43,346 nucleotides of DNA from a phage. The translations under genes were made by a program, and so were the position numbers. Every line of letters begins with the position of its first letter. The first letter of the stretch is position 1. Shown in pieces: positions 1,695 through 37,990 of the stretch. The stretch lies in NCBI GenBank assembly GCA_031490115.1, contig GCA_031490115.1_4355.1; one strand, 5' to 3'. The notes below the pieces were generated by a model, which was not told the DNA's origin, ran no database searches, and saw only the letters and a list, made by a program, of their open reading frames with translations.

Positions 1695-1894
1695 TTCTCC
1701 TGTTTACCAAGTCGCTTAGGTGAGCAGATAGCGCGTACCTCTGAATCGTTGGGCTTGTCACCCTGAAACAGAAAGTGCGCGTTCTCTGCGGCGCGTGCCG
1801 CTGACTGGCACGCCTCCATTGAGTAAAACGTTTCTGACGCCGCTAGTTGCATCTGGCCCGCCGACAATACCCAGATAAATAAGATGCTGGTCAT
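1691..1894 (-). CDS. hypothetical small protein with N-terminal signal-like hydrophobic segment
   Basis: 67 aa; hydrophobic N-terminus MTSILFIWVLSAGQMQLAAS; 4-nt overlap with the upstream gene. Confidence 0.4.
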   Translation of the reverse strand: MTSILFIWVLSAGQMQLAASETFYSMEACQSAARAAENAHFLFQGDKPNDSEVRAICSPKRLGKQEK

Positions 1895-2334
1895 TCGGTT
1901 ATAGCTCCACCACAGTTATCACAGACTACAGTGTTGCCGTAGTAAGTTCCGCAGTGAGCCGGAATGCACGAGCATACAGGTAGTTGAGCGTCTTCCTTTC
2001 GGCAACCGGATTGTTCTGGCGCATCCTTACATCCGAGTTCCTCAAGTGCTTTGCTAAGGTATTGGCGGCGCAGGGTGTCAGTCATTGCACTATTTGCCCG
2101 CCGGATGTACCCAATCGCGCCTTTAGGGTCCAGGTCAACGATTGAACGAAGACACATAACCTCGTTTTCAGCGCAATCCAGCGCACAGGTTAGTTCCTTA
2201 ATCTGCGCCGACGCGTTACGTAACTGATTCTTTAGTGACTGCACTTCATGCACCAGGTCTTCGCACTGGTTGCTGTTTACCTGCTGCCGTAGTCGGTCAA
2301 TCAGGTACTCGAATACTTCGTTTTTGTTACTCAT
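1891..2334 (-). CDS. hypothetical protein, N-terminal coiled coil and C-terminal Cys-rich (zinc-finger-like) tail
   Basis: 147 aa, first gene behind the promoter at 2365-2393; C-terminus CSCIPAHCG...CDNCGG. Confidence 0.45.
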   Translation of the reverse strand: MSNKNEVFEYLIDRLRQQVNSNQCEDLVHEVQSLKNQLRNASAQIKELTCALDCAENEVMCLRSIVDLDPKGAIGYIRRANSAMTDTLRRQYLSKALEELGCKDAPEQSGCRKEDAQLPVCSCIPAHCGTYYGNTVVCDNCGGAITE

Positions 2335-2364
2335 CTTCTGTCTCTCCTCTCGTCTGTGTAAATG

Positions 2365-2393
2365 AATAGTAGCCTATTCTATCTTAGTGTGCA
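2365..2393 (-). promoter_or_regulatory. sigma70-like promoter (TTGCAC-N17-TACTAT), leftward
   Basis: Minus-strand reading: -35 TTGCAC (2388-2393), 17-nt spacer, -10 TACTAT (2365-2370); same architecture as promoters at 3501, 26218 and 35065. Confidence 0.6.
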
Positions 2394-2551
2394 AGTAAAT
2401 TTTATTGGTGTTTGTATTGTTGCATCTCCTGCAATAGTCGCTTGGATTGTTGCGTTTGGTGAAAGTGTCGCCTTTTGACGACACTAAGTTAAAGTTGTAC
2501 GCTGCTGTGTAGCAGCGTAAGTCACTCAGTAAAATCCCAAACTATTGAACA

Positions 2552-2737
2552 TCACACCTCCGGCGGCTCAGGTAACGGCATCCAGTGCGTTATATCACCG
2601 TGATATAAACTCTTTGCGGGCCCCCAGTAGCCATCTGAATTAACACGCATAACCTCACAGCCAACAAAACAATCAGTTACAAGAACGTATTCATAAGGCT
2701 CCGGCATCCGCCCACTACACTTAATCCACTTGCTCAT
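2552..2737 (-). CDS. DUF551-like phage protein
   Basis: 61 aa ending ...ITHWMPLPEPPEV, the C-terminal signature I associate with DUF551 prophage proteins. Confidence 0.5.
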   Translation of the reverse strand: MSKWIKCSGRMPEPYEYVLVTDCFVGCEVMRVNSDGYWGPAKSLYHGDITHWMPLPEPPEV

Positions 2738-2895
2738 AAATCGCCTCTCTTCTCAAATGCGCCAGCCATTACATTCGCACCAGCTTTCCACGCCCGCCAC
2801 GCGAGACGCGTCTTAACGTTCAGGTACTCTTTCTTCGAACCCTTATTAACCGGCAGACCCTCGACGATGGCCCACCGTTCGAATGCTTCTCTCAT
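2734..2895 (-). CDS. hypothetical small protein
   Basis: 53-aa ORF (MREAFERWAIVEG...) not in the six-frame list; ATGA start/stop overlaps with both neighbours. Confidence 0.35.
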   Translation of the reverse strand: MREAFERWAIVEGLPVNKGSKKEYLNVKTRLAWRAWKAGANVMAGAFEKRGDL

Positions 2896-3047
2896 ACCAG
2901 AACCTCGCATTCATCCCGATACACGAACAATAATGACCCTTTGTACTCAACCATAAAACCATAATGGTTGCTGCTGAACGCCAGAAAAACATCACCTACC
3001 GAGATACCGAAATCTATAAGCCTGCGGTCAGTTATTCGAATTTTCAT
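2892..3047 (-). CDS. hypothetical small protein, paralog of the next gene
   Basis: 51-aa ORF MKIRITDRRLIDFGISVGDVF... shares the KIxITD...G(I/V)xVGDVF pattern with the 3047-3283 product. Confidence 0.4.
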   Translation of the reverse strand: MKIRITDRRLIDFGISVGDVFLAFSSNHYGFMVEYKGSLLFVYRDECEVLV

Positions 3048-3283
3048 TAACGGCAACCTCCCTCAGAGTCGTCGGCACGAGCATCATGATTAGATGCCGT
3101 TGTGTATACCTTCGCTTCTGCCTTAGTTACCGGGATTGTGTATCTTCCTGTCTTAATCCACCAGCCATCCTCACAGGAATCCAGTACATTGAAAACATCA
3201 CCCACATTTACGCCTATTTTCTCGAGAGTATCACCATCTTCTTCGTAGATAACGGTGTTATCTGTAATTATGATTTGCATCAC
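3047..3283 (-). CDS. hypothetical small protein
   Basis: 78-aa ORF MQIIITDNTVIYEEDGDTLEKIGVNVGDVF... Confidence 0.45.
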   Translation of the reverse strand: MMQIIITDNTVIYEEDGDTLEKIGVNVGDVFNVLDSCEDGWWIKTGRYTIPVTKAEAKVYTTASNHDARADDSEGGCR

Positions 3284-3474
3284 TTCACCCCTTTGAATTT
3301 AAAATTGTTGCCGATGAGTGTTAAATTATCTCTGAAAGCGTAACCATGTTTCTTTCGTACAAGACCCCATACGTCTACAGCGGTACTATATTCATCCTCA
3401 TTCTGGGTAACTATTACGTACTGTCCGCCGCGTTTTGTTTTAACCAACTGACCCTTCTTAAACATAACCCTCAC
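3280..3474 (-). CDS. hypothetical small protein
   Basis: 64-aa ORF, first gene after the promoter at 3501-3529. Confidence 0.45.
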   Translation of the reverse strand: MRVMFKKGQLVKTKRGGQYVIVTQNEDEYSTAVDVWGLVRKKHGYAFRDNLTLIGNNFKFKGVK

Positions 3475-3500
3475 TCCTTATGTCTCGTTTCGATAAGTGA

Positions 3501-3529
3501 ATAGTATCCTATTATGTTGGGGTGTGCAA
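3501..3529 (-). promoter_or_regulatory. sigma70-like promoter (TTGCAC-N17-TACTAT), leftward
   Basis: -35 is the reverse complement of 3524-3529, -10 the reverse complement of 3501-3506, 17-nt spacer. Confidence 0.6.
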
Positions 3530-4342: not shown

Positions 4343-4410
4343 AAGAAACCCCAACGCCAGAACGTCGGGGCTAAAGTACAAATCATCAAAGTAAGCATAA
4401 GGATTATACA

Positions 4411-4539
4411 ATGACAAAGTTAATAGTTCCACAGCTACGCCGCCAGAAACACGGCGCTGACTTCTTCGCACCGGTAAAGATGAACCGCGCAATGCGCCGT
4501 ATGCAGGAAGCCTTAGAACGTGCGGAGAAAAAGAAATGA
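4411..4539 (+). CDS. hypothetical small basic protein
   Basis: 42-aa ORF behind AAGGA; its TGA overlaps the ATG of the primase-helicase gene. Confidence 0.4.
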   Translation: MTKLIVPQLRRQKHGADFFAPVKMNRAMRRMQEALERAEKKK

Positions 4540-6788
4540 ATATTGTTTTTGCAACGCTGCGTAACACATTCGATAAAAACCCTGTAGCGCGTGAAATGCC
4601 GCTGGAGCAGTTCGTAGAGTATGTCTGCGATACATCGAAGCGTTTATCCGTGGACCCGTCATGGACTAAGGAAGAGTACGACGCGGCCAAGATTAAACAG
4701 AAAGCTATTGCGCCTGTTGGCGGTCGCCGTAAGAACGCTATTCTGGAAGACAGTGTGGTTAAGTTCGATTTTGACCATCTCAACCGTACTCAGTACCGCG
4801 ACCTTACCCGCAAATTCAAGAACGCACCGTTCTTCAATATTCTGCATACAACGGCATCGCATCAGCATGTGTGTAAAAACGGTGATTACGCCTTCCGCGT
4901 TCTCGTACCGGCTCGCACGCCGTTTAACTCTAACGACGCGTGGATGGTCCAACGGGCTATTTGTGCAGAGTTAGAAATAGATGAAGCCTTGCGTGACCAC
5001 TGCACGGAAGACGGCAACCGCCTTATCTATCTGCCACATAGAGAGTCAAAGATAACGGTTACAGAAGGGCGTGTTATCCGTGCCGAGCGGTACATCAAGA
5101 AAGCCGAAGAGATGGGGTTGAGTAAACGTGAAGTTAAGACACTTGCCGCCGATGAGTATGGGCTTAATGCTGATATAGCGCATTTCTGCGAAGCCGAGCT
5201 TGGCCTTGACGCTTTATCTTCCGGGCGCGGGTACGAAGTCCCATGCCCTAACGAACATCTGCATACAGGCAAAGGCTCCACAAGCATCATGCTTGATGGT
5301 AAAGAAGTGCGCTTTGTGTGCCGGCATACAAACAACGGCGCTTGCACCGAGCTTAACCGCCGACAGCATTTGGCCCTGCGTATGTGCGGCCTGCCAGACG
5401 AGCTTAACGTAGACAAGCAACCTATCAGTATTAACAGCATTCGTGCGGCTCTGCCTGATTTACCGGATGAAGAGATTGAAGAACTGCACCGCACAGAGAA
5501 CGAGGAGCCTGTAACTTGCACGCTGGAAGACCTTGAAGAAGAGGACGAGTTACCAGAACCGGTAAAGGCTGATTTCATCGTAGAAGGGTACATGCCGTCA
5601 GATTGTATCTGGGATATTGTCGGGGAATCCGGCACGTACAAATCATTCTATACGCTGGGGATGATGTACCTTAGCGCCGCCGGATACCGGTTTGCGGGGG
5701 CTGACACCCAACGTTGCCACCATTTCTATATTGACGGCGAGGGTGGTGCAGCTACACGAACACGTATTGATGCACTCGCGGCTAAATATGGCGAGGAAGG
5801 TAAAGATTATGTACATGTCATCGATATGGGCGAAATACTCGCTACGCATGGTGATAAAAAAATTCCAGCTCTAATCCGCAGGATGCGCGAAACCGCAGGG
5901 GATGAACCTATTGGCATGGTTGCCTTCGACACCCTTAACCAGACGCTGGCCCTGACGATTGATAAGTTCGACGAGAACAGTTCATCAACGGCAATCGGTA
6001 TGGGTAAAGTTATCGCCATCCTGAAAGAAGTGCGCGATGCAACTAAAGCCGCTGTCGGTGTCGTTCACCATACTCCGAAGGGCGGAAAGAAAGCCCGCGG
6101 CAGTGGAGCATTGTATGCGGGTGTCGACGTGGAACTGACAATCGAACGCGCTACCGACCGTCAGATAAACGTATACCACTCTAAATTTAAGCACGGTCCG
6201 CAACAGAAGACGGTTGGCATGGTACTGGAGTCTGTACAGTTCCGTGAAGCACCGCCGCCGAAAGAGTACCGCGCGGTTGAGTTCCTCGGTAGCACAGAGG
6301 AATACGGCACAATAGTAAACCTCGACCTGCCTGAGCCGCACAAGGCGCTTGTATTGATGCCGTGGGGCTTCGAGCCATTCAAGACCGACGAGGAGAAAGA
6401 GAGGGAAGAAGGGTTAACTAACGAAGGTAAACAAAATGTACGTAAAACCATAGAGAACGCCGTCAACAGTTCCGAGGCCACGATACTCGCGGCGTTTGAA
6501 CTGGCGGAGGGGACCTACAACGGCAACGAGGGCATCACGGTATCCGCAGCGAATAAGCTCGCGCAGTCTGGCCCCAACGCAAAGGCGTTTAACTCCAAAG
6601 AAGCCATAGAACGCGGGAAGATTAAGAAAATGGTTGAGGCTGGGTATCTTGTTCCGGGTACTGACGAAAACAATCAGATAATCCCAGGCCGTTACAGACT
6701 GAACACCATGATAACAGATAACAAGATTCCGAAGACAATATACGAACCGAATGAAATGCTGACAGTGACCGAGGAGGATTTGGAATGA
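4536..6788 (+). CDS. putative primase-helicase (RecA-like/AAA_25 ATPase domain)
   Basis: 750 aa; Walker A GESGTYKS, DnaB/RepA-like motifs (FDTLNQ, VGVVHHTPKGG), Cys/His cluster CPNEHLH...C...C upstream. Confidence 0.65.
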   Translation: MNIVFATLRNTFDKNPVAREMPLEQFVEYVCDTSKRLSVDPSWTKEEYDAAKIKQKAIAPVGGRRKNAILEDSVVKFDFDHLNRTQYRDLTRKFKNAPFFNILHTTASHQHVCKNGDYAFRVLVPARTPFNSNDAWMVQRAICAELEIDEALRDHCTEDGNRLIYLPHRESKITVTEGRVIRAERYIKKAEEMGLSKREVKTLAADEYGLNADIAHFCEAELGLDALSSGRGYEVPCPNEHLHTGKGSTSIMLDGKEVRFVCRHTNNGACTELNRRQHLALRMCGLPDELNVDKQPISINSIRAALPDLPDEEIEELHRTENEEPVTCTLEDLEEEDELPEPVKADFIVEGYMPSDCIWDIVGESGTYKSFYTLGMMYLSAAGYRFAGADTQRCHHFYIDGEGGAATRTRIDALAAKYGEEGKDYVHVIDMGEILATHGDKKIPALIRRMRETAGDEPIGMVAFDTLNQTLALTIDKFDENSSSTAIGMGKVIAILKEVRDATKAAVGVVHHTPKGGKKARGSGALYAGVDVELTIERATDRQINVYHSKFKHGPQQKTVGMVLESVQFREAPPPKEYRAVEFLGSTEEYGTIVNLDLPEPHKALVLMPWGFEPFKTDEEKEREEGLTNEGKQNVRKTIENAVNSSEATILAAFELAEGTYNGNEGITVSAANKLAQSGPNAKAFNSKEAIERGKIKKMVEAGYLVPGTDENNQIIPGRYRLNTMITDNKIPKTIYEPNEMLTVTEEDLE

Positions 6789-7328: not shown

Positions 7329-7359
7329 GTCAGTTACTCCTTAGTCAGTTGATATGTGA

Positions 7360-7388
7360 ATAGTACCATATTAATTATTTTAGAAAAG
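7360..7388 (-). promoter_or_regulatory. candidate promoter of the XRE regulator gene
   Basis: -10 TACTAT (reverse complement of 7360-7365) with a poor -35; contains the GAATAG/TATT dyad. Confidence 0.4.
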
Positions 7389-7392
7389 CCCA

Positions 7393-7421
7393 TTGACATG
7401 TGAATAGTTCGCTATTATAGT
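7393..7421 (+). promoter_or_regulatory. sigma70-like promoter (TTGACA-N17-TATAGT), rightward
   Basis: TTGACA 7393-7398, 17-nt spacer holding the GAATAG-N4-CTATT dyad, TATAGT 7416-7421. Confidence 0.65.
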
Positions 7422-9765: not shown

Positions 9766-9965
9766 TTCAAGTAAATGAAATGCCCACAGATAAAGATTTT
9801 GTGATGATATGGCGCTGGGGCGGTTATATCCATTCGGAATCGTTTACGTTCCTGAACGGCACGATGGTGCGATACAACCATGTGGAGGATGAATTCGAAC
9901 CCGTTGATATGAATGATTTCGAGAACATAGTCCGTATTGCGAAATTTTATTTGACACCTGAATAG
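9762..9965 (+). CDS. hypothetical protein
   Basis: 67 aa, coupled through GAGGAGGATTTAGAATGA. Confidence 0.45.
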   Translation: MIQVNEMPTDKDFVMIWRWGGYIHSESFTFLNGTMVRYNHVEDEFEPVDMNDFENIVRIAKFYLTPE

Positions 9966-9979
9966 TTAGCTATTATAGT
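9951..9979 (+). promoter_or_regulatory. sigma70-like promoter (TTGACA-N17-TATAGT)
   Basis: TTGACA 9951-9956, spacer with GAATAG-ttag-CTATT, TATAGT 9974-9979. Confidence 0.65.
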
Positions 9980-26217: not shown

Positions 26218-26246
26218 TTGCACACCCCAATATAATAGGGTACTAT
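26218..26246 (+). promoter_or_regulatory. sigma70-like promoter (TTGCAC-N17-TACTAT), rightward
   Basis: Same element as 35065-35093; 30 nt upstream of the Imm-like gene. Confidence 0.6.
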
Positions 26247-26276
26247 TCACTTACACCAACAATGGAGGGGTTTAAA

Positions 26277-26468
26277 ATGTCCAGTTTACCAGTTTCCTTA
26301 ATTCTGTTTGCACTGCTCGCTTATTTCGCGCCTTTCCTGGTTGCGTATTTCCGTAACCATAAAGCGAAATTAGCGATATTCATGGCTAATCTGTTTCTTG
26401 GATGGGTTCTGCTGCCGTGGGTATTTATTTTAATCTGGGCTTGCAACTCGAATGTCAAAGAGAAGTGA
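26277..26468 (+). CDS. superinfection immunity (Imm)-like small membrane protein
   Basis: 63 aa from the ATG behind GGAGGGG; YFAPFLVAYFRNHKAKLAIFMANLFLGWVLLPWVFILIWA fits the Imm-type two-TM pattern (YF.P...R.H...AIF..N.FLGW). Confidence 0.6.
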   Translation: MSSLPVSLILFALLAYFAPFLVAYFRNHKAKLAIFMANLFLGWVLLPWVFILIWACNSNVKEK

Positions 26469-34249: not shown

Positions 34250-34513
34250 CTATTCCAGAATATTCCTCACGTAATCCTGCAACATGAACACTTTCAGTCT
34301 CAGTTGCCGTACACATTCTGCGTTCTGAACGTCGATAGCCAAATCCTCGTCGGCGTCGCTACTTGGCAGCGCCAGTTTGCACGGCGGCTGCATCATCGTC
34401 GTATCCGGGGATGGAATTGGCGTTTGCGACTGCGCGGGACTTGAGCTGCACGCGCTCAGGGTCAAAAGTGCACACGCTGCGACCAGGCGTTCTAATGTAC
34501 TTAACGACTTCAC
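34250..34513 (-). CDS. o-spanin (Rz1-like lipoprotein), overlapping the i-spanin gene
   Basis: Lipobox LLTLSAC, Pro-rich mature region with MMQPP (compare lambda Rz1 IMQPPP); in the +1 frame across the 3' end of the Rz-like gene. Confidence 0.55.
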   Translation of the reverse strand: MKSLSTLERLVAACALLTLSACSSSPAQSQTPIPSPDTTMMQPPCKLALPSSDADEDLAIDVQNAECVRQLRLKVFMLQDYVRNILE

Positions 34514-34745
34514 GGGTAATCACCTCTGATTTCGTCTTGCCTTCGTTGTCGGCGGCGGCGGCCTTTGATTCGTCCTGCTGCTGCCGTTGTGTTTTCTTCG
34601 CTAACTCAGCCTGCGCTTTCTGCTGTTGCTGCGAAACGAGATTCGCCCGGCCTTCGCTCCAGCCGCTGCGGTACTGATAAATGCCGTGTGTGTAAGCCAG
34701 GATGATGAAACATGCTCCCGCTACGACAGTTGCTTTAAGATTCAT
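34359..34745 (-). CDS. i-spanin (Rz-like)
   Basis: 128 aa; N-terminal TM helix, Gln-rich coiled coil, embedded lipoprotein ORF. Confidence 0.55.
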   Translation of the reverse strand: MNLKATVVAGACFIILAYTHGIYQYRSGWSEGRANLVSQQQQKAQAELAKKTQRQQQDESKAAAADNEGKTKSEVITREVVKYIRTPGRSVCTFDPERVQLKSRAVANANSIPGYDDDAAAVQTGAAK

Positions 34746-34761
34746 GTTTCCCCTTTCTCGA

Positions 34762-34789
34762 TAAGTAAAGCCCCGCCTTAAAGCGGGGC
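34762..34789 (-). terminator. terminator-like hairpin in the leader of the late operon
   Basis: GCCCCGC-N6-GCGGGGC followed on the minus strand by UUUACUUAU, about 185 nt downstream of the copy-B promoter and 25 nt upstream of the Rz start. Confidence 0.45.
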
Positions 34790-34855
34790 GCTAGTCCTTA
34801 TCATTTAAACATAGAAACGGCGTAATCTCAGTAAATCAGTTACTTTTTACACAAG

Positions 34856-34998
34856 CAATAGAGCACGGCCCTTCAGAACGCGTCAGCGTAACTACACTCA
34901 GGACTTACGTCCCGCTCCGTTACCTGCCCGCGCCGCGGTCGTTTGTTCATACTTCACAAGCTCAGGTGGAGCTTAGCACATTTTTAGTGAAAAGTCAA
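34856..34998 (-). repeat. copy B of the duplicated promoter-plus-leader element
   Basis: Minus-strand -35 TTGACT (34993-34998), 17-nt spacer, TGn-TAAGCT (34970-34975); conserved leader; hairpin GGAC-ttac-GTCC (34901-34912) replaces copy A's GTGCC-taat-GGCAC. Confidence 0.6.
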
Positions 34999-35064
34999 CT
35001 ATTCGAATAGTTTATTCCAACATTTACAATTCGGTGGAATAACTGGAATACGTAAATAAATAGT

Positions 35065-35093
35065 TTGCACACCCCAATATAATAGGGTACTAT
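35065..35093 (+). promoter_or_regulatory. sigma70-like promoter (TTGCAC-N17-TACTAT), rightward
   Basis: A 28/29-nt match to the promoter at 26218-26246. Confidence 0.6.
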
Positions 35094-35120
35094 TCATTCT
35101 ATCGAACCGAGGAGGCCGTC

Positions 35121-35174
35121 ATGTTAGTCGTTATTTCAGTAGTAATTGCAGTTGATGCGGTGATGTTTCTTTAG
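35121..35174 (+). CDS. 17-aa hydrophobic mini-ORF (leader peptide candidate)
   Basis: GAGGAGG 6 nt upstream of ATG; MLVVISVVIAVDAVMFL. Confidence 0.25.
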   Translation: MLVVISVVIAVDAVMFL

Positions 35175-35218
35175 GCTTGTAGTGGTATTGGTGAAATTGA
35201 CACGGGTAATGGTGAACT

Positions 35219-35563
35219 ATGAAATATATTAAATTAGCAGTAGCGGGTGTTGTAGCCGTCTGTTTGAGTGGTTGCGTAAGGTCGTTGCCAGACCCAGCTT
35301 TACAGGTTTATCAGGCGGGGGATACAACGGCAACATGTAATCAGTTACTATCGAGAATCGCCACGACAAAACAAGCTCAAGCCAACGCTACGCACCGTGT
35401 TAATAAGCAAATAGGTACTAACGTTGTACTCGGTGTTACAGGCGCATTCCTGATTGTTCCGCTGTTCTTTATGGACACAGGCGCTGGGCCTTCTATGGAC
35501 GAGATGGCAGCCGGTAATCGTCTGTCGCAGTTACAACAAACATACGACGAGAAATGCAAATGA
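35219..35563 (+). CDS. lipoprotein (superinfection-exclusion candidate)
   Basis: Signal peptide with lipobox LSGC, plus a C-proximal hydrophobic segment; own promoter and terminator; opposite strand to the surrounding structural genes. Confidence 0.55.
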   Translation: MKYIKLAVAGVVAVCLSGCVRSLPDPALQVYQAGDTTATCNQLLSRIATTKQAQANATHRVNKQIGTNVVLGVTGAFLIVPLFFMDTGAGPSMDEMAAGNRLSQLQQTYDEKCK

Positions 35564-35631
35564 CAAATAGTGTGATGTTTTATGTTGTTTTGTGGGTATC
35601 GGCTGCGGTTATCACCGCGATGTTCATATAA
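35560..35631 (+). CDS. 23-aa hydrophobic peptide
   Basis: ATGA-coupled to the lipoprotein gene. Confidence 0.25.
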   Translation: MTNSVMFYVVLWVSAAVITAMFI

Positions 35632-35635
35632 AAAT

Positions 35636-35658
35636 AAAGCCCCGTAAGGGGCCTTTTA
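35636..35658. terminator. bidirectional terminator
   Basis: AGCCCC-gtaa-GGGGC followed by CTTTT. Confidence 0.6.
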
Positions 35659-36120
35659 TCATTCTGGCTTAGTTACCTTCGCCGCTTTACTGACGGCCTC
35701 TACCCCATCGGCATCAGTAACTTTAACGAAGTATTCGCCGACCGCATTAACCGTCAGAGACAGAGCCTCCTCAGGCGCATTCACCACTTCCTTACCGTCT
35801 TTGTACCAGGTCAGAGAATACGGCGCTTTGCCTGCCTTAACCTCGACAGTGATGGTTGCGCTGCCGCCCGCCAGTTCAGCGTCCTGCGGTTGCGCGGAGA
35901 AATACACGTCGCCAGCGTCCGCCAGATACGGAATTTCATAAAGCATACTGGCGGCGGGCAACGCAATACCGGTTTTATCTGCAAACGGCATATCATCTAC
36001 CGGTGTACCGAGTACACTTTCGTCCCCAATAAATACCACGTTCTCGCCAGAGCCAGACACGCGGGCGTACTGGACTACGCGACGAGACGGTACGTCAGTT
36101 ACTTTGAAAAAGCCCATCAT
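35659..36120 (-). CDS. Ig-like domain structural protein
   Basis: 153 aa; YSLTWYKDGKEV...GEYFVKVTDADG is an Ig I-set-like motif shared with the 31701-32042 product. Confidence 0.5.
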   Translation of the reverse strand: MMGFFKVTDVPSRRVVQYARVSGSGENVVFIGDESVLGTPVDDMPFADKTGIALPAASMLYEIPYLADAGDVYFSAQPQDAELAGGSATITVEVKAGKAPYSLTWYKDGKEVVNAPEEALSLTVNAVGEYFVKVTDADGVEAVSKAAKVTKPE

Positions 36121-37305: not shown

Positions 37306-37959
37306 ATGAAACTGCAAACATTAGAGTTCCCTTATGGAGAAATCACTTTTGACCGTGAAAACTTTATTAACGTAAACGAGCTGGTTGACCAGATGAACCG
37401 TTGGCGTTTAGACAACGGCATGGGGGCCAGAGAGCTTCGCCAGGTCATGGCAACGGATGGCTTCAAGATTTTCAAGGAGGAATGCGAAAAACAACTCGGA
37501 ATCGAGAATGCCATAAGGGCGACGAAAGGCCGAAACGGTCGCACCTTTGCATGTCTCCATCTGGCAGTATATATTGCTGAGCAATACAGCGCCTATTTCC
37601 ATTTCCTCGTTATCGACCGCTTTATCACACAACGGCAGGTAGAACTACGAAACATTGGCGCGGTGAGCTTTGTCGAGCTTAACGCTGCCGTTAGTCGAAT
37701 GATCGAGCGCACGGAGGGAAGAATTGGCCACAGTGGACACTTCATACAGGTGGCTAAAGCGGTAAAGGAATCCGTAGATATCCGCGACGTAACGGGTTTC
37801 GATACATGGGACTCTCAGGATGCGAAGACCAATCAGTTGCGAAGTGACATCCAGAAAGCTCTGGTGACGCTTCTTGACATGGAGGCCGTTAATACATGGG
37901 GTGAACTGAAAGAGGCGATACCTCGGGTTGTGCGTAAATGTGCGGCTAATATACGTTAA
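37306..37959 (+). CDS. KilA-N domain protein
   Basis: 217 aa; N-terminal region (...NGRTFACLHLAVYIAEQYSAYFHFLVIDRF) fits the KilA-N/APSES-type fold; AGGAGAAA upstream. Confidence 0.55.
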   Translation: MKLQTLEFPYGEITFDRENFINVNELVDQMNRWRLDNGMGARELRQVMATDGFKIFKEECEKQLGIENAIRATKGRNGRTFACLHLAVYIAEQYSAYFHFLVIDRFITQRQVELRNIGAVSFVELNAAVSRMIERTEGRIGHSGHFIQVAKAVKESVDIRDVTGFDTWDSQDAKTNQLRSDIQKALVTLLDMEAVNTWGELKEAIPRVVRKCAANIR

Positions 37960-37963
37960 AACT

Positions 37964-37990
37964 AAGGCCCCTAGCGGGGCCTTTCTATTT
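37964..37990. terminator. bidirectional terminator
   Basis: GGCCCC-tagc-GGGGCC followed by TTTCTATTT; overlaps the portal stop. Confidence 0.6.

Follow-up and report, generated by a model that had tools for sequence, protein, structure and literature searches.

A lipoprotein cassette between the Hoc-like and Rz genes of a Kagunavirus genome: a candidate for superinfection exclusion after adsorption

Here, we describe a small gene cassette in a stretch of phage DNA of 43,346 nucleotides (nt; contig GCA_031490115.1_4355.1). Throughout, 'the window' means this whole stretch. The cassette runs from an early-type promoter through an optional leader open reading frame (ORF1), a gene for a predicted lipoprotein of 114 amino acids (aa) and an overlapping gene for a 23-aa membrane peptide (ORF3), to a bidirectional terminator (Table 1). 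A plus-strand lipoprotein unit with its own promoter and terminator, inserted in the head gene block, had been proposed in a preliminary description of the locus. This proposal is borne out: the cassette is real, it lies where it had been placed and every element named can be found. The insertion site can also be given more exactly. On one side lies a gene for a Hoc-like head-decoration protein (convergent with the cassette), and on the other lie the Rz/Rz1 spanin genes (divergent from it). The 1.5 kb around the cassette is 93-95% identical to the Escherichia phages phiEc4, Golestan, SZH-1, HSE2 and fBC-Eco01, all of them virulent siphoviruses (Guernseyvirinae, genus Kagunavirus). The window is a Kagunavirus genome, that is, the genome of an E. 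coli phage.

The cassette qualifies as a moron in a hypervariable Kagunavirus slot: promoter and terminator are conserved while the cargo between them varies. It has its own terminator and an inferred promoter of its own, it is oriented unlike its neighbours and it shows presence/absence polymorphism at a fixed site. In particular, only 11 of 192 related phage records carry this cargo. In other relatives the Hoc-like/Rz interval is empty (K1ind2, UTI-CM001) or holds a 67-aa protein (the Bas70 group), a RusA-like resolvase, a Dam-type methylase or other genes. In Bas70, for example, the promoter and terminator are kept around a different cargo. A record filed as a plasmid (L021; CP088689.1, pC16EC0033-2) carries the cassette too: a 44,086-bp circular sequence from an E. 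coli blood isolate that is a complete Kagunavirus genome. This record may reflect a carrier state, pseudolysogeny or contamination.

Table 1. Features of the cassette, its flanks and related elements (positions refer to the window unless another locus is named).
Feature	Position	Strand	Details
Promoter-like 32-mer, TTGCACACCCCAATATAATAGGGTACTATTCA	35065-35096	+	-35 TTGCAC 35065-35070; 17-nt spacer; -10 TACTAT 35088-35093
ORF1, 17-aa hydrophobic peptide	35121-35174	+	AGGAGG upstream at 35110-35115
Predicted prolipoprotein, 114 aa	35219-35563	+	Signal peptide 1-18; lipobox LSGC (Cys19); helix ~40-65; loop 68-86 (NVVLGVTGAFLIVPLFFMD); helix ~90-112; Cys40/Cys113
ORF3, 23-aa single-pass membrane micro-protein, MTNSVMFYVVLWVSAAVITAMFI	35560-35631	+	ATGA overlap with lipoprotein stop
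Bidirectional intrinsic terminator hairpin	35636-35660	both	Common to cassette and convergent Hoc-like gene
Hoc-like head-decoration gene	35659-36120	-	Right-hand flank, convergent with cassette
Rz/Rz1 spanin genes	34250-34745	-	Flank on the other side, divergent from cassette
Copies of the 18-nt promoter core	2363-2380, 3498-3515, 7357-7374, 7401-7418, 9959-9976	-	
Copies of the 18-nt promoter core	26232-26249, 35079-35096	+	
Twin unit	26218-26468	+	Identical 32-nt promoter, then gene for 63-aa PF14373 (Imm_superinfect) membrane protein, 26277-26468
Cro-like helix-turn-helix gene, 71 aa	7113-7328	-	Preceded by a core copy
66-aa two-helix membrane protein	L019 4349-4549; L020 4337-4537		Aeromonas Ahphunavirus

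The putative promoter at the head of the cassette was first described as nearly the same as an element at 26218, and the two prove to be identical at 32 of 32 positions (26218-26249). A further copy with two mismatches lies at 3529 on the minus strand, and shuffled sequence gave no match. The 18-nt core of the element (ATAATAGGGTACTATTCA) occurs seven times in the window against 0.01 copies expected. The element is also conserved in Golestan, fBC-Eco01, Bas70 and the diverged locus L023, even where the cargo differs. From this repetition, from its position and from its conservation, we infer that the 32-mer acts as a promoter. Over the putative -10, the core has an inverted repeat (AATAG-N4-CTATT), and it may be an operator as well. 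The repeated element has been seen before: the authors of the fBC-Eco01 paper found it with PHIRE and ascribed it to a phage RNA polymerase (PMC9825357). No RNA polymerase gene was noticed in the genus Kagunavirus.

What else this element precedes bears on the function of the cassette. The same element stands before a cluster of small genes (1850-3500, minus strand), before a gene for a Cro-like protein with a helix-turn-helix (HTH) and before an Imm-like gene of family PF14373. The last of these forms a twin of the cassette, and its 63-aa product matches PF14373 at E = 7.5e-13, with 48.6 bits against a gathering cut-off of 27.9 (Pfam). In transcriptomes of a relative, an HTH-domain gene, which may or may not correspond to the Cro-like gene of the window, is the sole annotated early gene (PMC12645636). 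Early transcription of the cassette is plausible on this sequence evidence.

The two small ORFs that flank the lipoprotein gene differ in how well they are kept. ORF1 had been introduced as a 17-aa hydrophobic mini-ORF. Such a frame is present, one base away from its implied coordinates, and it turns out to be a truncated allele rather than a full-length ORF. The intact form in Golestan, fBC-Eco01, phiEc4, SZH-1 and HSE2 has 33 aa (MLVVISVVIAVDAVMFLWACSGIGEIDTGNGEL), runs to 35222 and ends in an ATGA overlap with the lipoprotein start. In the window, codon 18 (35172-35174) has changed from TGG to TAG, an amber found in this genome alone. ORF1 is optional, because the diverged cassette of L023 (a metagenomic contig whose lipoprotein is 82% identical) is without it and has only a short, different leader. 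The 23-aa hydrophobic peptide noted at the other end is a genuine gene, by its conservation in the same L023, where length and overlap are unchanged. When the two versions of ORF3 are compared, 15 synonymous sites show 13.7 changes, as against 6.3 at 51 non-synonymous sites (proportions of sites changed: pS 0.91, pN 0.12), and the other two frames carry stops. On these counts ORF3 is under strong purifying selection. A rough insertion energy for its 19-mer is -1.5.

The terminator was likewise correctly recognized at the outset, with a GCCCC-loop-GGGGC stem (35639-35652), T-runs on both strands and an RNA folding energy of -11 kcal/mol. When five sequences are compared, the loop varies and the stem does not change. 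No RNA family came up in an Rfam scan of 34600-35800. Directly after the hairpin, phiEc4 and K-02 (L080 and L083) carry a 17-bp tandem duplication (TTTTTATCATTCCGGC/TTTTTATCATTCTGGC).

The central gene of the cassette encodes a protein with a canonical lipoprotein signal (MKYIKLAVAGVVAVCLSG followed by the lipobox cysteine), as first described. The n-region (MKYIK), the hydrophobic h-region and Cys19 are in place, and lipid processing is predicted. Against the 82%-identical variant in L023, the ratio of non-synonymous to synonymous substitution rates (dN/dS) is about 0.09. The protein matches phrog_13472, a family of unknown function, over its full length (E = 2.8e-44). A profile search of 1.84 billion representatives returned 1,466 proteins at E <= 1e-3, 714 of them at E <= 1e-10. 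A genome scan with a 21-sequence alignment found members in Alpha-, Beta- and Gammaproteobacteria, Deferribacterales, Planctomycetes, Omnitrophota, Nitrospinales and Desulfobacteraceae, all of which are diderm bacteria. At the DNA level, no host copy was detected in 5,426 complete E. coli genomes.

Conserved residues of the family are the lipobox cysteine, Asp35, Cys40, Cys113 and Arg101, together with a near-invariant hydrophobic stretch (N-V-A-L-G-V-T-G-A-F-L-I-V-P-L-F-F-M-D in the family alignments). Most members have a lipobox. The window protein shares the profile, the lipobox, the Cys40/Cys113 pair, the loop (N-x-x-LGVTG-x-FL-x-VP-x-FFMD) and Arg101. Beyond phrog_13472, scans of Pfam, NCBIfam and PADLOC gave no meaningful match: the best were T2SSF (E = 0.047) and Ala_zip_lipo (E = 0.044), both below cut-offs. 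The defence profiles of PADLOC-DB v2 gave no match for the window protein or for P0007, P0009 and P0017, a sequence-profile search of the PDB gave coiled-coil noise only, and literature searches found no paper describing the family. By sequence, phrog_13472 is an unnamed and uncharacterized lipoprotein family of diderm bacteria and their mobile elements. A label of 'putative structural protein' in the HSE2 record had raised the possibility of a virion protein; we dropped it, since the label comes from BLAST similarity alone, without proteomics.

Several observations bear on the topology of the protein. The cysteines at 40 and 113 co-vary: both are present in 109 of 113 sequences, both are absent from three, and one alone is missing from a single sequence. 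The conserved hydrophobic stretch has only 17 apolar residues, with a proline and three glycines inside, which leaves it a borderline candidate for a transmembrane helix; in the homologues from Aeromonas phages it is not even among the most hydrophobic windows. The N-terminal flank of the loop has a charge of +1.5 and the C-terminal flank one of -2.6, the latter being negative in 96% of members. By the well-established positive-inside rule, these charges oppose a crossing of the membrane by the loop in the N-out, C-in direction. AlphaFold2 run with 113 sequences gave two long helices (40-75 and 90-112) at a mean predicted local distance difference test score (pLDDT) of 74; run with 21 sequences, it reached a pLDDT of 60, too poor for use. 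A Foldseek search of the 113-sequence model against the PDB and BFVD yielded no hit at E <= 0.001; what it matched were generic helical hairpins (AcrA and WXG100, for example). Taken together, the co-variation, the marginal hydrophobicity, the charges and the model suggest that the mature lipoprotein is a helical hairpin facing the periplasm, with a disulfide at its base and the conserved loop at its tip. The loop would then dip into the membrane or bind a partner.

The main functional evidence for an exclusion role comes from the genomic context of relatives. Nine P22-like prophage loci (L004-L006, L011 and L085-L089, from Citrobacter, other enterobacteria and IMG/VR prophages) carry a homologue about 40% identical to the window lipoprotein. 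It lies 70-80 nt downstream of gene 16, the last of the ejection genes 7, 20 and 16, and before mnt/arc/ant or the tailspike gene. This placement in the gene 16-gene 9 interval was made by tblastn to P22 proteins for L004-L006, L011, L085, L087 and L088, and by gene layout for L086 and L089. In P22 itself the interval holds sieA. Leavitt et al. found sieA always between genes 16 and 9, in 22 of 66 P22-like phages (PMC10883804). Neither a match to SieA nor its motif occurs in any of the nine loci, whereas the P22 control is positive. We also considered a 149-aa minus-strand ORF beside the homologue in L004 as a possible SieA type, and rejected it for want of similarity and of the motif. Within the same interval, L087 has a second, unrelated lipoprotein of 157 aa (4364-4837, minus strand; lipobox LLVGC), tail-to-tail with the family member.

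Other mobile elements add to this picture. In an integrative element of Seleniivibrio, the homologue follows directly after traH-traG and is followed in turn by helicase and methylase defence genes. Another homologue has a DUF4011 helicase on one side and a type I restriction-modification system on the other, and further ones lie beside an island integrase and on a small plasmid fragment. The T7-like Aeromonas phages have the homologue in their early region, with a conserved 66-aa two-helix membrane protein directly after it. Family copies in prophages, integrative elements and chromosomes stand alone, with a hairpin at the end. The idea of a conserved operon partner across bacteria was dropped: among the nearest and second-nearest neighbours in 54 genomes, no family occurred more than twice.

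Known exclusion systems offer functional analogues at several points. P22 SieA (phrog_7745) is matched in location by the prophage homologues, though not by the window gene itself, and the presumed point of action would be alike, namely DNA delivery after adsorption. The proteins themselves are different. SieA resides in the inner membrane as a protein of three to four helices without a signal peptide (PMC10883804), and its gene is transcribed on the opposite strand, unlike the lipoprotein homologues. A direct comparison of the lipoprotein with SieA gave an hhalign probability of 0.3%; the motif FxRYPxEAxxFNK is absent, and there is only one marginal hydrophobic segment. The Streptococcus phage TP-J34 protein Ltp and HK97 gp15 are likewise envelope proteins encoded by morons, and they block DNA injection by siphoviruses. 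Ltp, as summarized in PMC10883804, is a lipoprotein that targets the tape-measure protein. The Ltp system, however, is Gram-positive and its family gave no Pfam match to the lipoprotein, whereas gp15 is an inner-membrane protein and not a lipoprotein.

The virulent phage T4 provides a second kind of analogue. Imm (PF14373) and Sp are small membrane proteins expressed early by virulent phages, and they block DNA entry. The phage described here has a PF14373 gene under a promoter identical to that of the cassette. The lipoprotein itself has no Pfam match to PF14373, so it would be a second, independent arm, like Sp in T4. Conjugative elements provide a third, in the entry-exclusion lipoproteins TrbK, TraT and YddJ of ICEBs1, which are also small and also keep out incoming DNA. 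The exclusion genes of F-like and SXT elements are located directly after traH-traG, which is where one member of phrog_13472 is found. This is the single such context seen, and there is no Pfam profile similarity. Lambda Bor and other lipoprotein morons share the layout of promoter, gene and terminator around an outer-membrane-type lipoprotein. Bor differs in that it is a fitness factor of lysogens, while the cassette occurs in virulent phages under an early-type promoter, and the lipoprotein has no PF06291 match. In short, the nearest functional analogues are T5 Llp (discussed below), P22 SieA, T4 Imm/Sp, Ltp and the conjugative entry-exclusion lipoproteins, and sequence and fold place the lipoprotein in none of them. 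By analogy, its mode of action would resemble that of SieA, Imm or Ltp rather than that of Llp/Cor.

On this basis, superinfection exclusion is the leading hypothesis, because a lipoprotein is carried by a moron, the promoter is common with a PF14373 gene and homologues occupy the sieA interval of prophages that lack sieA. As the best reading of the sequence evidence we would propose, tentatively and at somewhat less than even chances, an early-expressed exclusion function that acts at the envelope after adsorption and does not mask a receptor. Host RNA polymerase would transcribe the cassette early, along with the Imm-like gene under the same promoter. The lipoprotein would be exported and lipidated at Cys19, its mature part facing the periplasm as an alpha-helical hairpin closed at the base by a Cys40-Cys113 disulfide. 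Its hydrophobic loop would enter the membrane or touch a conserved envelope partner, possibly the co-translated 23-aa peptide. The conduit for DNA delivery across the periplasm or inner membrane would thereby be disturbed, and the infected cell would become refractory after adsorption. The lipoprotein, probably with its 23-aa partner, would thus be a companion of the Imm-like protein. A far broader version is also conceivable, in which phrog_13472 is a widespread class of exclusion lipoproteins, so far overlooked and recruited from a bacterial envelope protein by virulent phages, by P22-like prophages, where it would stand in for sieA at its locus, and by integrative or conjugative elements. 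Through its loop and a micro-protein it would hinder incoming trans-envelope DNA conduits in general (phage ejection or tape-measure channels, possibly conjugative ones) from being assembled or inserted into the membrane. We regard this as a speculative extension with a small chance of being right.

The preliminary description had likened the lipoprotein to T5 Llp and to Cor from phi80 and N15, which block the phage's own receptor, and had accordingly named it a superinfection-exclusion candidate. In such a scheme the receptor would be inactivated from the periplasmic side, which would prevent superinfection and the loss of progeny on debris. There are real likenesses. All are small phage lipoproteins for which superinfection protection has been proposed, and the cassette, like T5 llp, comes with a promoter of its own in a virulent phage. 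In T5, llp is followed by four small ORFs (T5.159-162), each annotated with a single transmembrane domain, much as small single-helix membrane ORFs are found in the cassette (L093 35430-36491; NC_005859 110429-111490). In addition, the window lipoprotein has a valine at +2, for which the Lol sorting rule, an established one, gives outer-membrane sorting as the default. Kinship with Llp/Cor is not borne out: hhalign against T5 Llp aligned 22 signal-peptide columns only (probability 33%), and the Llp/Cor family phrog_1119 gave E = 0.3 over residues 1-37. Where the mature part of Llp/Cor has about 60 aa, that of the cassette lipoprotein has 95, is helical and carries the hydrophobic loop and the cysteine pair. 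T5 llp abuts oad, whereas the cassette lies between the Hoc-like and Rz genes, away from any receptor-binding gene. Receptor masking is unlikely because Kagunaviruses reportedly depend on glycans of the O-antigen or capsule that tailspikes recognize, with no outer-membrane protein receptor known (PMC11990801), so that their host range is glycan-based rather than FhuA-based. Furthermore, the loop motif is invariant from Deferribacterota to Enterobacteria, which argues against a variable, strain-specific receptor as the target. We therefore give this alternative little weight.

Other findings weigh against exclusion, or against parts of the scheme proposed above. The 32-mer matches the sigma-70 consensus at just 7 of 12 positions and was missed in a consensus scan. 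The transcriptome study cited above (PMC12645636), which sorts genes into three coarse bins, puts the Imm-like gene among the late ones, and this conflicts with a simple 'early promoter'. The amber in ORF1 abolishes the ATGA coupling and leaves a weak GGTGA ribosome-binding site before the lipoprotein, so expression in this phage may be lower than in relatives. The AlphaFold2 model is moderately confident and is poor exactly in the conserved loop, and other cargo of the slot (methylase, RusA) has nothing to do with exclusion. As for the family at large, most distant homologues are chromosomal genes that stand alone, and in 54 diverse bacterial genomes their neighbours are mostly housekeeping genes. 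In Photorhabdus namnaonensis a chromosomal member (L027, 6001-6303) lies between a dicarboxylate symporter and mlaA/fadL, a placement that could point to a part in bacterial membrane-lipid homeostasis, and in Rhizobium the homologue is a stable resident of large replicons. Given these contexts, the family probably consists of ordinary envelope proteins of bacteria, taken up by mobile elements on repeated occasions. Its ancestral role was probably a cellular one at the envelope, and the phage copy may do something other than exclude.

The serious rival, then, is that the phage has borrowed a general envelope function from bacterial ancestors. This could be lipid or membrane homeostasis or envelope stabilization, with benefits for burst size, lysis timing or resistance to lysis from without or to envelope-acting defences, and with no exclusion of other phages. 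The extreme conservation of the loop, which suggests a universal lipid or protein partner, would suit such a role as well as the chromosomal contexts do. It fits less well that the enterobacterial and phage-borne clades are found on mobile elements only, at loci of exclusion or defence type, and that the cassette has its promoter in common with an Imm-like gene. On balance we consider it less likely than exclusion, although it has to be taken seriously. Proximity to Rz/Rz1 and the combination of a lipoprotein with a membrane peptide could instead suggest a lysis accessory, either a unimolecular-spanin-like protein or a regulator of spanin or holin. Yet the phage already has a complete two-component spanin, and the cassette is evidently not needed for lysis, because most Kagunaviruses do without it. 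The hydrophobic segment is internal, the charge and cysteine data speak against membrane spanning and the periplasmic part lacks the length to bridge the envelope. Moreover, the homologues are prophage morons of the lysogen-expressed type and also ordinary chromosomal genes. A lysis role is thus very unlikely. The least probable alternative is decaying or neutral cargo that merely hitch-hikes. The amber unique to this genome and the tolerance of the slot for emptiness would be compatible with it, whereas the strong purifying selection on the lipoprotein and the 23-aa ORF (in cassette variants saturated at synonymous sites) and the intact promoter and terminator are not what decay would leave.

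If exclusion after adsorption proves correct, the cassette would add a structurally new family to the few known superinfection-exclusion proteins of Gram-negative bacteria: a helical-hairpin lipoprotein, stapled by a disulfide and partnered by a membrane micro-protein. Of the P22-like phages, roughly two-thirds lack sieA, and the finding would also point to what some of these have at the gene 16-gene 9 locus in its place. Kagunaviruses are used and engineered in therapy against urinary-tract and K1 E. coli, where the cassette could affect co-infection and the design of cocktails. Whatever it does, the family, with about 1,500 clusters at 50% identity and no Pfam entry, is a well-defined target for annotation.

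Some further observations concern the neighbourhood and its annotation in public records. In the K-02 record, only minus-strand ORFs are annotated across the cassette, and the lipoprotein is missing. The o-spanin ORF (34250-34513, minus strand) encodes 87 aa with a signal peptide and a lipobox (LTLSAC), and overlaps Rz; in the public records of relatives, just the last 47-48 codons are annotated, without the lipobox. A second opposite-strand cassette, which encodes a KilA-N domain protein (37306-37959, plus strand), is found between the genes for head morphogenesis and the portal, with an inverted repeat (TTCTACATTCAAATGTAGAA) in an upstream region of its own and a GC-rich hairpin terminator at about 37966-37983. 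The homologous position is labelled 'DNA polymerase III sliding clamp' in the record of one relative.

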